64,000 nt of DNA from Alphaproteobacteria bacterium. GTDB taxonomy: Bacteria; Pseudomonadota; Alphaproteobacteria; MPNO01. The translations under genes and the position numbers were made by a program. Position 1 is the stretch's first letter; every line of letters begins with the position of its first letter. Below the pieces are notes generated by a model. It was not told where the DNA came from. It searched no databases and worked only from the letters and a program-made list of their open reading frames with translations. Where the stretch lies: the NCBI GenBank assembly GCA_964291675.2, contig OZ219865.1:992001-1056000 (forward strand), read 5' to 3'. This document shows positions 52,930 through 56,997 of the stretch, in pieces.

Positions 52930-54045
52930 ATGAGCGACCAGGGACCGCCCTTCCGCGCCGACCACGTCGGCAGCCTGCTGCGCCCGGCGAGCGTCGCCGA
53001 GGCGCGCCGCAAGTGCCTCGACGAGAAGACCATGCCGGAAGACGAGCTGCGCGCGATCGAGGACGCGGCCATCGCAGACGCCATCCGCATGCAGGAAGAC
53101 GTGGGCCTCAAGGCGGTGACCGACGGCGAGTACCGCCGCCTGTTCTGGCATTACGACTTCATGGGGATGCTGACCGGCTTCGAGTTCGAGCGCCGCGAAC
53201 AGGGGGTGCAGTTCGCCGGCATGCAGATCCCGCCGCTCTACCCGACGATCACCGGAAAGCTCGACTTCCCGGACGACCACCCGATGCTGGACCATTTCCG
53301 CTACGTCGCCGCCAACGCGACGGTCATGCCCAAGATCTCGATCCCGGGTCCGAGCTGCTGCCACTTCCGCACCGCGCCGGAAGACATCCACGTGCCGGAA
53401 TACGCCGACACCGAAATCCTGTTCGCCGACATCGCCGCGACCTACAACAAGGCGGTGCACGCGTTCCATGCCGCCGGCTGCCGCTACATCCAGCTCGACG
53501 ACATCTTCTTCGCCTATCTGTGCGATCCCAGGCACCGCGCGGCGAAACAGGAGGAAGGCCACGATCCGGACCGGCTGATCGACCGCTACGCCTGGATGAT
53601 GCGCGAGGCGATCGAGGACCGCCCCGACGACATGACGGTGGCGATGCATCTCTGCCGCGGCAATTTCCGGTCGACCTACGCGGCCGAGGGCGCCTACGAC
53701 CCGGCGGCGGATGCGGTGTTCAACAAGACCGGGGTCGACATCTTCTTCATGGAGTACGACACCGAGCGCGCCGGCGGGCTGGAGCCGCTGGGACTGCTCG
53801 CCAAGGGGAGCCAGCGGGTGCTGCCGGGCTTCATCACCACCAAGACGCCGGAGCTCGAAAGCATCGACGACCTCAAGCGCAAGTTCGACGAGGCGTCGCA
53901 ATACGCCGATCTCGACCAGCTCGGAATCGCGCCGCAATGCGGCTTCGCCTCGACCGAGCACGGCAACAAGATCGGCCACGACGACCAGCGCCGGAAGCTC
54001 GACCTCGTGGTGACCCTGGCCGAGGAGATCTGGGGCGGGGTGTAG
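52930..54045 (+). CDS. Cobalamin-independent methionine synthase II family protein
   Basis: FRADHVGSLLRP, TDGEYRR, HLCRGN, EYD..RAG, PQCGFAS. Confidence 0.9.
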   Translation: MSDQGPPFRADHVGSLLRPASVAEARRKCLDEKTMPEDELRAIEDAAIADAIRMQEDVGLKAVTDGEYRRLFWHYDFMGMLTGFEFERREQGVQFAGMQIPPLYPTITGKLDFPDDHPMLDHFRYVAANATVMPKISIPGPSCCHFRTAPEDIHVPEYADTEILFADIAATYNKAVHAFHAAGCRYIQLDDIFFAYLCDPRHRAAKQEEGHDPDRLIDRYAWMMREAIEDRPDDMTVAMHLCRGNFRSTYAAEGAYDPAADAVFNKTGVDIFFMEYDTERAGGLEPLGLLAKGSQRVLPGFITTKTPELESIDDLKRKFDEASQYADLDQLGIAPQCGFASTEHGNKIGHDDQRRKLDLVVTLAEEIWGGV

Positions 54046-54077
54046 GGAACGGCCGAAATCTCCGCCGCTCTCCTCTC

Positions 54078-54120
54078 GTCATTTCGGCCGGAGCGCCGAA
54101 GGCGCGAAGCGCAGAAATCT
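54078..54120. repeat. Second palindromic repeat type (GTCATTTCG...GAAATCT)
   Basis: GTCATTTCGGCCGGAGCGCCGAAGGCGCGAAGCGCAGAAATCT hairpin-like sequence; single copy in window. Confidence 0.45.
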
Positions 54121-54355
54121 CCCTGCCCACCGCCTCACCACGTCATGGCCGGCCCCCGGATCAAGTCCACTGCTGTCCGGTTTGCCGTGAAACAGTTTGC
54201 CGTGAAACAGTTTCGGTGGGGGCGCGCGAGGGCCCCATCCAACGCCGGGAGGGAGTTGGCTGAGATCGCCGGAAGGGGGCGGCGAGACGAGCGGTGGACT
54301 TCCCCGATGTGGCCCGAAGCGGTCCCGCGCGGCGGTCCGGCGTTATGCGGGCCGG

Positions 54356-55605
54356 TCAGGTGGCCTTGGGTTCGGCGCGCCGGGGTTGGATGTAGCCGTA
54401 GCGGCGGAGCATTCGGATCCAGCGCGGGGCGTTGCGCTTGACCATCAGCGCGTCGTAGTCGGCGGTGCGGTCGTAGTAGGGCCTGCCGGTCTTGAGCACG
54501 ACATAAACGATGCGCAGCATCTTGTGTGCGCCGGCCACGATGGCGCGCTTGTATCCGCGCCGGGCGGCGAGCGCGCGGTGGTGGGCCTCGAACTGGCACC
54601 CCTTGGTTCGGGCCGCGCCGTGGGCACATTCGACGAGGCTGGCGCGCAGCGTCCTGGAGCCCCTTCGGGTGCGCGCGTTGCGGCGCTTTCCGCCGCTTTC
54701 GTTGTTGCCGGGGCAGAGCCCGGCCCAGGCGGCGAAGTGCTGCTTGGAGGCGAACGCCTCGATATCCGGGCCGATCTCGATCAGGATGGTCGAGGCGGCG
54801 ATGCGGTCGATGCCGGGGATGGTGGTCAGCAGGCGGAGCTGTTCCTGCCACGGCGTCATCTGCCGGTCGATCTTCTCGCCGTAGGACGCGATGCGCGCCT
54901 CGAGCGCGTCATGCTCGTCCAGCAGATCGCCGAGCATGAAGCGGTCGTTGTCGCCCAGGCTCAGGGAGAGCGCCTCGCCGAGCCCCTCCAGCTTGTTGGC
55001 GACGTGGCCGGTGAGCGAGGCGAGGATGACCGCGCGCGGCGTGGCTTGCGCCAGCCCGTCGAGGATCTTGCGGCCGTTGACGCCGAAGACGTCGGAGAGG
55101 ATGCCGCCGATGCGCAGGCCGGCGCGGTCGACGATCTTCTGCACCCGGTTGCGCACGGTCGAGCGCTGCCTGACCAGGGTACGCCGCTGGCGGCTCAGCG
55201 AGCGCAGCTCCCGGAACGGCTCGGGGGGAACATGGGAAGGCGTGCAGAGCCCGAACTGGCACACGCAGGCCAGCCACACGCTGTCGGCGACATCGGTCTT
55301 GCGCCCCTTCAATGCTTGACCTGACGCGCGTGCACCAGGATCGCTTCGATCCCCGCCGCCTCCACCGCCGCGAAGGGCGCCTGCCAGTAGATCCCGGTCC
55401 CTTCCATGACAGCGGCCTCGACGCGGCGACCGGTCAGCCAGGCGACCATCTCCGCCAGACCGCTCGGAAGCGAGCTGAAGCAGCGCGTCTCCACCACCGG
55501 CTCGCCCTCGCCCTCGCACAGGCGAACCGTCGCGGTGATCTCCATCTTGTGCACGTCCAGACCCGCCGCGCGCGGCCGCACGACGTGCAAGCCTTCCGTC
55601 TTCAT
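54356..55605 (-). pseudogene. IS110 transposase, 1-nt frameshift near 55314 (true lesion or assembly error)
   Basis: GLDVHK and MEGTGIYW in one frame; GRKTDVAD, TIPGID and WAGLCPGNNESGGK in another frame. Confidence 0.88.
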
Positions 55606-55679
55606 CGCTGTCCTCCTCGTTGCGCTCTCGCCACGGCGGCGTAGGATCGCGCCGTGGCATCGCCACGGTGGAGGCGGGG

Positions 55680-55950
55680 ACAGCGGTCGGAAGGACACGC
55701 ACCCGTCGAGCGGGTGCGGTTCGATTTGCCGCGCGTCCACGGCCGCGGGCCGGGCACAGTACGGGGTGCGGAGCCGACCGCCGGAAGCAGTTTATATCTC
55801 GGGAACCACATCACCGATAAACGGAACGCTCACGCGTCGCCGCCTCCACCGTTCCCATCCTGCCACGGCAGACCCGCGCGACGATCGGCAAACCCTCAGC
55901 CGAACGCCCCGAGTTTCATGCCACGGGGTGGCTCAGCACCGCCGAGACCA
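55680..55950 (-). ncRNA. Candidate IS110 bridge RNA (boundaries approximate)
   Basis: Stem-loop 55786-55830 with internal-loop segments matching both flanks of the insertion site; TTTGCCG (55725-55731) matches the element end. Confidence 0.6.
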
Positions 55951-56152
55951 TGACGGTTTATATGAGCTGGACCGGGCGCAAAGCCTTGTTCCGGGCGGGA
56001 TATCGGCGCATCCGCCGGATCGGGACACGGATCGCCGCACGCCCGCACTTGCCGTCCCTGCCCCTGTGTTGTCACCCCGGCCGCGTTCCGGGCACCCACG
56101 GGCGGGGCGGGCCGCCCCCGGCTCCCGTACTCCTCCACCGCCACCCCCACCC

Positions 56153-56283
56153 CGTCATGGCCGGACTTGATCCGGCCATCCATGCGCAGACTTGATCCGC
56201 GCAACCACTGGCGCCACCGGTACAACGCCCGTCGGGAGGGGCGGCGGCGCCAGTGGATGCCCGGATCAAGTCCGGGCATGACG
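56153..56283. repeat. Inverted REP doublet inside the TIR element
   Basis: CGTCATGGCCGGACTTGATCCGGCCATCCA ... TGGATGCCCGGATCAAGTCCGGGCATGACG with internal CCACTGGCGCC/GGCGCCAGTGG stem. Confidence 0.85.
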
Positions 56284-56442
56284 ATGGGGGGGGCATGGCG
56301 CTGGGCGGGAAACGCCGGGAGCGACGCGCGTCGAAGGCTAAACCGGACAGCAGTGGATCAAGTCCGGGGGTGACGCGTGGGAGGAGGCAGGGCGACGGGG
56401 CGGGCCGGCGGAGCGTTGTGCTCGCCGGGCGCGGGCCCGCGG

Positions 56443-56997
56443 TCACGTCTCCCCGGCGCCCCGGCCGGGCCAGGGCGCGTGGTAGCTCCGCTCGTCGTGC
56501 TCGATGGTGTTGATGAAGCCGAGCGCCAGCGGAAGCGCCGCTTCCCCGGCGAGGCGGGCCGCCAGCTCGCCGCGCGGACAGAAATGGCGGTAGCCCAGGC
56601 GCTCGTAGGACGCGCGCTCGGGCAGCGAGACGCCATAGACCACGATGCCGCGCTCCGCCCGCAGCGGCGCCGGCAGGGCTTCGGCGAAGGGCAGCCCCTG
56701 CCCCGCATTGTTGCCGATCGCGACGCGGTCGACCGTCGCATCCAGCCCGGCCAGCGCCTCGCGGATCGCCGCTTCCGAGACCCGGTCCCAGTTCAGCCTC
56801 TCGTGCGCGGCCTCGGCGGCGCTGAGCGCGCCCGGATAGCCGGCGCCGACCCGGTAGCCGCCATCGCCCAGGGTCAGCCGCGCCCAGGGAAGCGGCGGCT
56901 CGGCGACGAAGGCATCGACCGTGACCTCGTTGTCGAGGATCAGCACCCGGAAATGGCCGGCGAAGCGGCGCTCGAGCTCGGCGGCGAGACCGGTCAC
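56443..56997 (-). CDS. Hypothetical protein (~184 aa)
   Basis: GTG 7 bp after the VOC gene stop; protein-like sequence 'RVAIGNNAGQG', 'GFINTIEHDERSYHAPW'. Confidence 0.7.
   Translation of the reverse strand: MTGLAAELERRFAGHFRVLILDNEVTVDAFVAEPPLPWARLTLGDGGYRVGAGYPGALSAAEAAHERLNWDRVSEAAIREALAGLDATVDRVAIGNNAGQGLPFAEALPAPLRAERGIVVYGVSLPERASYERLGYRHFCPRGELAARLAGEAALPLALGFINTIEHDERSYHAPWPGRGAGET

Follow-up and report, generated by a model that had tools for sequence, protein, structure and literature searches.

An IS110-family element with a predicted upstream bridge RNA of IS1111-like guide order appears to home into a REP-associated MITE of an alphaproteobacterium

The 64,000-nucleotide (nt) stretch of DNA analyzed here, which is referred to as the window in its full length (contig OZ219865.1 of assembly GCA_964291675.2, positions 992,001 to 1,056,000, Alphaproteobacteria bacterium, lineage MPNO01), contains an insertion sequence (IS) of the IS110 family that resides in a miniature inverted-repeat transposable element (MITE), which in turn lies in a repetitive extragenic palindromic (REP) hairpin. 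From the comparison of its copies and homologues we conclude that the element is very probably a genuine bridge-RNA-guided member of the family, the guide RNA of which would be encoded in the 354-nt left end. The comparison establishes the family, the ends and the target element, and, as far as sequences can do so, the predicted fold of the RNA, two putative guides for the bottom strand and the dependence of site occupancy on the guide. More tentatively, the element may represent a sparse, widespread branch of IS110 elements (recombinases of about 410 amino acids; Alpha-, Beta- and Gammaproteobacteria as well as Vicinamibacterales) that combines an upstream RNA with the guide order of IS1111-type elements and a closed two-module fold. 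Homing into mobile elements has already been documented for the IS110 family, and what is new is the RNA layout of this branch rather than the principle.

Results

Copies, recombinase and ends of the element

The genome (two contigs, 4.8 Mb) harbors eight full, near-identical copies of the element, which have a length of 1776 bp in the window and of about 1761 bp at the other seven positions. A first-pass annotation, made from the sequence of the window alone, had named copies in unrelated flanks as evidence against its own reading; all eight copies share both junctions and a single orientation with respect to the site. On the plus strand, CGGTTT is present at 54178-54183 and again at 55954-55959, i.e. 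at both junctions, and the many empty sites in the genome consist of left flank, core and right flank, which corresponds to an insertion without target duplication. The empty-site form is also seen in a contig of sequencing run X1, which joins 54177 to 55954 and skips 1776 bases, with six letters ambiguous. The junctions of the first-pass annotation are thus supported by the eight copies, the empty sites and this contig, whereas its end at 55963 includes four bases of the flank; the letters that it quoted, among them the minus strand from 55831 to 55785, are correct.

The recombinase frame is intact in six of the eight copies. The protein encoded by an intact copy matches the Pfam families PF01548 (DEDD_Tnp_IS110, 79.8 bits) and PF02371 (Transposase_20, 82.2 bits) as well as the NCBIfam model NF033542, "IS110 family RNA-guided transposase" (264.8 bits, cut-off 140), in agreement with the family assignment made beforehand. 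It is distant from the solved IS621 (PDB 8wt6) and ISCro4 recombinases (E about 1e-14), and shares less than 45% identity with every recombinase of the plasmid collection. The frameshift that had been noticed in the window copy is real and is caused by a 1-base deletion near 55312, which occurs in two of the eight copies. Most of the sequencing runs in which part of this stretch is present are labelled as sponge metagenome, and contigs from other runs contain an extra C at 55312 and thereby the intact form. The window copy itself is defective due to the frameshift and a duplicated end, while its RNA and ends are intact; by analogy, the six intact copies could mobilize it in trans.

In element orientation, the left end reads AAACCGTCATGG... 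and the right end ...CTGTTTCACGGC. Loci encoding relatives with 57–100% protein identity were collected from species genomes (79) and from metagenomes (15). Homologues share the motif AAAC-NN(N)-CATGG at their left end, while TGTTTCACGGC is conserved at the right one. Exclusively in the window copy (1/8), the right end contains a 15-bp tandem duplication (GCCGTGAAACAGTTT twice, plus strand). The duplicated terminus is bounded by AAAC repeats, and the window copy thus has two candidate left-donor sites. The non-coding right end comprises about 157 nt, compared to the 354 nt upstream of the recombinase gene. Subterminal inverted repeats conserved among ten lineages were not found, since the best end-to-end alignments scored within or near the range of shuffled sequences and were located at differing places. 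In the right non-coding end (window 54240-54300), a motif ...ACATCGGGGAAGTCCACC... (element orientation) is conserved across close lineages. It contains the 8-mer AAGTCCAC, which is complementary to the target flank GTGGACTT; we treat this complementarity as chance, since the motif is also conserved in lineages with other targets.

Head-to-tail copies bearing the junction that is predicted from abutted ends are present in a relative's genome. Such tandem copies were identified at L041, L045, L046, L051, L053, L056 and L095 (one alphaproteobacterial metagenome-assembled genome (MAG)), with the junction CACGGC-AAA or AAAA-CAGTCATGG.

The target site lies at the inner edge of a MITE inverted repeat

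In element orientation, the insertion site reads GCTCATAT-AAA-CCGGACAGCAGT, and its right flank belongs to the terminal inverted repeat of the host MITE. The 15-mer ACTGCTGTCCGGTTT of this repeat occurs 89 times in the genome at up to one mismatch, and the MITE ends comprise 38 left and 51 right ones, with 411-413 bp as the commonest size (10 of 29 end pairs). On either side of the MITE in the window lies GGATCAAGTCC (54158-54168 and 56355-56365), a direct repeat of 11 bp that belongs to a REP loop, and the direct repeats around the MITEs have the form GGAnnnnnTCC. At least 10 of the 11 flank letters are identical in 15 of the 29 end pairs, compared to 28% for flanks that are not partners. The host is short, non-coding and present in multiple copies, with terminal inverted repeats and a target-site duplication, as is characteristic of a MITE. 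This agrees well with the first-pass annotation, according to which the target forms the inner border of one terminal inverted repeat in a REP-targeting element: the repeats have 15 bp, and the 11-bp duplications lie inside REP loops. For the IS, the MITE represents a multi-copy and presumably neutral landing site.

Some MITEs form arrays, in which three ends of the same direction are spaced 330 bp apart and followed by one opposite end (G000:C1:545889-546960 and elsewhere), and a shorter form of 314-332 bp has a different inner end, GAAAATCT. With respect to an autonomous partner, one 1562-bp end pair was inspected by its list of open reading frames, which revealed only noise frames of GC-rich DNA, no domain search having been run.

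The left end is predicted to encode a closed two-module RNA

The consensus fold was calculated with RNAalifold on an alignment of 18 left ends. It consists of a 14-bp long-range stem that closes around a target-binding and a donor-binding module (Table 1). Over 787 cells of the alignment, 94.8% are compatible with pairing, compared to 86.6% in shuffled alignments and 40-51% in slid controls, and 17 of the 44 pairs are changed on both sides, which was reached by none of 500 shuffles. These compensatory changes include two pairs each in the outer and the inner stem of the target module, and helices 4 and 5 of the donor module are changed on both sides as well; the succession of stem, internal loop and stem that had been read from the window copy alone is hereby supported. 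A covariance model, the use of which had been suggested as a check, was built from this fold and has exactly eight matches in the genome, one per copy and exclusively at the left end.

A scan of 53900-56500 against Rfam resulted only in two chance matches below the gathering score and in no matching family. When 150 other genomes of the class were searched with the covariance model, strict filters being applied, none had a match at or below an E value of 1e-5, a result that refers to these genomes. One relative (L070:1326-1421) keeps the donor module only (model positions 68-164), with unrelated sequence in place of the target module and the left end.

Two loop segments covary with the left flank and the right end

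The 3' side of loop 1 ends with NNNN-AAAC just before the outer stem, and its four variable letters equal the four letters to the left of the element. When 17 distinct guides were compared with 42 distinct flanks, the identity amounted to 61.0 of 68 letters, while 20.9 ± 4.0 would be expected, and none of 5000 permutations reached the observed value. In 16 of 16 sequences, the letters of alignment columns 91 and 92 are those of flank positions -2 and -1, and each of the four bases occurs among them. In the element studied here, the guide AUAUAAAC equals the left flank ATAT followed by AAAC of the A-rich core and would pair with the bottom strand. The corresponding ATATAAAC has exactly two occurrences in the window, one in the loop (55790-55797) and one at the junction (55956-55963), each on the minus strand; 0.03 occurrences are expected, and two or more were found in none of 100 shuffles. 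The first-pass annotation had proposed AUAUAAAC as target guide and had recommended to examine its covariation with the flanks in homologues, which, once carried out, supports the proposal. Two loci, L031 and L033, encode a protein with 100% identity to the recombinase of our genome, while their guide reads AUCU at an ATCT site instead of AUAU at an ATAT site. The AUCU variant (L031, L033 and L032) is located twice in ATCT sites of MITEs and once in an unrelated site, CACGGCT-AA-AGGAGAAC.

The second module contains a segment, [G]C[G/A]GCAAA, with the letters of the right end and the core; its G/A position, alignment column 163, agrees with end position -3 in all of 16 sequences. In the window, TTTGCCG is located in this segment (55725-55731) and again where the element ends (54181-54187). 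The suggestion that CGGCAAA serves as a donor guide is hence supported by covariation across the homologues. Both the left-target and the left-donor guide are in the sense of the top strand and would pair with the bottom strand.

Candidates for the two top-strand guides

On the 5' side of loop 1, the segment GUUCCGUUU has a probable pairing partner in AAACCGGAC of the top strand, i.e. in the MITE inverted repeat. Between G-UUCCGUUU and AAACCGGAC, seven Watson-Crick pairs, one G-U pair and one C-C mismatch are formed. At the level of the family, with 19 distinct segments and 61 sites, the complementarity to the cognate right flank amounts to 79.75 compared to 65.7 ± 3.6 for swapped flanks, and this value was reached in none of 2000 permutations, a test in which some lineages are related and independence is thus overstated. 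Clear matches in other lineages are those of GUCCGCAU with ATGCGGGC in the L098 group and of GAAGGU with ACCTTC in L117.

For the right-donor side, GGCCGUGGACG, which constitutes the 3' strand of the small hairpin in the donor module, is complementary, with G-T wobbles, to the left end (...CATGG...), and a hit recurs at this place in the majority of 17 lineages; L099 shows pairing of all 10 bases, two of them as G-T wobbles. Because the segment and its CATGG partner are both nearly invariant, no covariation test applies and it stays a candidate. The first-pass annotation had found no convincing right-donor guide, and we could likewise fix none. The variable heptamer UACUGUG in front of the small hairpin was also considered and dropped, since only the pairing of its GU with AC is consistent.

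Occupancy of the MITE sites follows the guide

All sites in the genome were grouped according to the number of mismatches between the four letters before AAAC and the guide letters AUAU. With zero mismatches, five sites are occupied and three empty; with one mismatch, three are occupied and 24 empty; and with at least two mismatches, none is occupied and 92 are empty. The three empty sites with matching letters have AAGC or GAAC in place of AAAC, so that all five perfect sites (5/5) are filled. The opposite MITE end, where GGCT precedes AAAC, is never used. From these sequence comparisons we conclude that the element homes independently into the MITE site and does not hitch-hike with the MITE.

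At G000:C2:1937972-1939923 (L007, L009), the last ~148 bp of the element are present a second time after a full copy, which fits an insertion at GCAT-AA-CGCCGGACC in the right end of another copy with subsequent recombination between the copies.

Weighing of alternative explanations

The constant position of the IS would be uninformative on its targeting if a MITE transposase had copied a MITE that already carried the IS. The IS is indeed located between both inverted repeats of the MITE, and such a composite could in principle be mobilized, yet we regard this history as hardly credible. The IS copies are 99.6% identical, whereas the neighboring MITE interiors share 85% identity (range 64-97%), and three flank variants are represented among the occupied MITEs (CATAT in five, CACAT in two and CATCT in one case). 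Furthermore, one copy is not inserted at a MITE end at all, but in a similar sequence, GCAT-AA-CGCCGGACC, within another copy's right end, and homologues with other guides occupy unrelated flanks that match those guides. Alternatively, the protein alone might read the MITE inverted repeat, in which case the upstream structure would be a leader that regulates the translation of the recombinase. In line with a leader, the closing stem finishes about 60 nt ahead of the ribosome-binding site, a separately expressed RNA is so far a prediction, and the right flank in the inverted repeat is invariant in our genome, so that RNA pairing is not tested by variation there. Nevertheless, this explanation is very unlikely: in a leader there would be no reason for four variable letters to agree with the left flank across 17 guides, or for one letter to follow the right end in 16 of 16 cases, and identical proteins (L031/L033 and our genome) reside in ATCT and ATAT sites, each of which matches its own RNA.

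Guidance by an RNA being preferred, it can still be asked how many sides of the two DNA substrates the RNA reads. If only the two bottom-strand sides were read, CCGGAC and CATGG would be recognized by the protein or remain unread, and the 5' segment of loop 1 would be structural. We consider this version unlikely, albeit one to be taken seriously. A relative with at least 35 distinct sites (an alphaproteobacterial MAG), which share only (G)ACA-AA-[A/G], shows no conservation of the right flank beyond position +1 (A in 25 of 33, G in 8 of 33), the left ends hardly vary in their CATGG, and the column-wise test yielded no covarying right-donor guide, only two-state phylogenetic confounds. In our element alone, the pairing of the 5' segment reaches 6.0 compared to 4.45 ± 0.96 for non-cognate combinations (maximum 7.0) and is not significant; the 7/9 match reported in the first-pass annotation is accordingly present and has the support of the family, but by itself does not exceed the non-cognate background. 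On the other hand, the excess of complementarity across the family and the long in-place matches of the L098 group and L117 speak against a reading of the bottom strand only, and the sole off-site insertion in our genome has CCGGAC in common with the true site.

The latter two results on the top-strand guides, i.e. the lack of a covarying right-donor guide and the non-significant pairing of the 5' segment, also weigh against the bridge RNA as predicted here, and so do several further observations. In L031, a G-to-U change weakens the pairing of the 5' segment while the flank is unchanged. With respect to the exchange point, the right junctions in our genome contain AA in three of the eight copies (L002, L007, L008) and AAA in five, while the left junctions and the empty sites contain AAA; this split, which is also seen in the L097-L107 group, may reflect slippage at the exchange or homopolymer errors in long-read assemblies. 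A circle junction was not seen in the contigs of the sequencing runs examined, and a scan of 54100-56050 found no sigma-70-like promoter. Contigs from RNA libraries cover only parts of relatives and cannot demonstrate transcription, and the 5' and 3' ends of the RNA, its expression and its binding by the protein are predictions.

Table 1 Features of the IS110-family element, its predicted RNA and its target in the window. Coordinates refer to the window; guide assignments are predictions.
Feature	Position	Strand	Remark
IS110-family insertion sequence	54184..55959	minus	one copy of the junction CGGTTT counted in
DEDD recombinase gene	54356..55605	minus	start ATG 55605-55603, stop 54356-54358; intact form 416 amino acids
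Predicted bridge RNA core	55665..55850	minus	14-bp long-range closing stem, 55850-55837 with 55680-55667, around two modules
Predicted target-binding module	55785..55831	minus	outer stem 55831-55827 / 55789-55785; inner hairpin 55816-55800
Predicted donor-binding module	55681..55783	minus	outer stem 55783-55774 / 55690-55681; two hairpins inside
Donor-module hairpins	55757-55735; 55720-55697	minus	invariant small hairpin; variable hairpin
3' loop segment AGAUAUAAAC	55790..55799	minus	putative left-target guide AUAUAAAC at 55797-55790
5' loop segment UUCCGUUUAU	55817..55826	minus	candidate right-target guide; with preceding G complements top strand AAACCGGAC
Putative left-donor guide region GCGCGGCAAAUCGA	55721..55734	minus	CGGCAAA (55731-55725) = right end + core
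Candidate right-donor guide GGCCGUGGACG	55734..55744	minus	low confidence; G-T-wobble complement to ...TCATGGTC of left end
Right end of element / left-donor site	54184..54213	minus	element orientation ...TTTCACGGC; 15-bp tandem duplication
Left end / right-donor site	55948..55959	minus	element orientation AAACCGTCATGG
Left target flank (MITE interior)	55960..55967	minus	element orientation GCTCATAT
Right target flank (MITE terminal inverted repeat)	54169..54183	minus	plus strand ACTGCTGTCCGGTTT
Host MITE	54169..56354		410 bp without IS; 15-bp terminal inverted repeats 54169-54183, 56340-56354

Discussion

By analogy with IS621 and the seekRNAs, the element would excise as a circle, in which its ends are abutted as ...TTTCACGGC-AA(A)-CCGTCATGG..., and a complex of recombinase and RNA would pair this donor junction with the site GCTCATAT-AAA-CCGGACAGCAGT. 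Strand exchange would then take place within the A run, resulting in an insertion without duplication, and the element would thereby home into a multi-copy site inside another mobile element.

Landing in mobile elements has precedents. IS4321 and IS5075 reportedly target the inverted repeats of the Tn21 family. As in these elements and in ISEc21, the landing pad described here is a specific site inside another mobile element; the host, however, is a non-autonomous, REP-targeting MITE in our case, and the site extends across the inner boundary of its repeat of 15 bp. ISEc21 targets IS3 transposase genes (PMC11187229) and IS621 targets REP elements.

With regard to the RNA, the published descriptions cited here distinguish two arrangements. 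In ISEc21, the RNA is located upstream, and the match to the bottom strand lies 5' of the match to the top strand (Siddiquee 2024, PMC11187229), whereas the seekRNAs of the IS1111 type (ISEc11, ISPa11, ISKpn4) are located downstream, have the top-strand match first and accompany subterminal inverted repeats of 7-17 bp (PMC11187229). The same split of order and position is repeated in a 2026 review (PMC13604230). As far as these descriptions go, our element resembles IS621 and ISEc21 in its DEDD recombinase with both Pfam domains and the long non-coding end upstream of it (PMC11208160; PMC11208158; PMC11187229), in an RNA of two modules, each with an internal loop around a hairpin, and in the insertion without duplication into a repeated genomic element. 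It differs from the two in that the putative bottom-strand guide is located on the 3' side of the loop (18 of 18 aligned RNAs) instead of the 5' side, that a long-range stem of 14 bp closes the whole RNA, that the donor module contains two hairpins, and that the core is an A run and not CT; compared to IS621, the recombinase of 416 amino acids is also a distant one (PDB 8wt6, E 1e-14). The IS1111-type seekRNAs share with it the order of the matches, with the top-strand segment first and the bottom-strand segment on its 3' side, but here the RNA lies upstream and a conserved subterminal repeat was not found in the ten lineages compared. The first-pass annotation had regarded the guide order as reversed relative to IS621, and the comparison with the published order agrees with this. 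In the literature texts searched, figures and supplements lying outside this scope, we found no description of an upstream RNA with the IS1111 order.

Among more distant relatives, the same layout is weakly recognizable on plasmids of Caballeronia and Burkholderia (recombinases 37-39% identical; 18.7 and 18.6 bits with the covariance model), where the 3' loop segment equals the 8 and 9 letters, respectively, just left of a CAT-containing end. On the plasmid relatives of Alicyclobacillus, Streptomyces, Rhodococcus and M. avium, the model had no match. A 9-nt loop match in a Variovorax relative was rejected as a target match, since the same 18 bp flank a tandem copy on both sides. The relatives L126-L128, L132 and L134 (plasmids of Caballeronia, Rhodococcus and Burkholderia; recombinases 37% identical) are found directly inward of an IS3-family element's left inverted repeat, upstream of IS21 istA, or between fragments of an IS5 transposase; three replicons of Caballeronia contain the same composite.

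The arrangement in the window represents a nesting on three levels, from the REP hairpin to the MITE to the IS110 element, and provides an example of a guide that has filled every perfect site of its genome. It also offers a natural case of reprogramming by one letter, in which the same recombinase protein is found with the guide AUAU at ATAT sites and with the guide AUCU at ATCT sites. Bridge recombinases are being engineered as programmable tools for genome writing, and the mechanistic work concerns nearly exclusively IS621 and its close relatives. If the layout proposed for the branch is true, the order of the guides would not be tied to the end of the element that encodes the RNA, the synaptic complex would hold the strands with a loop polarity opposite to that of IS621, the strands might be exchanged in another order, and programmable recombinases would have a second natural geometry. 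The two published rules, by which an upstream RNA has the bottom-strand guide first and a downstream RNA the top-strand guide first, would be uncoupled in this branch, and the question of what fixes the polarity of the loops would thereby become testable in a compact natural system.

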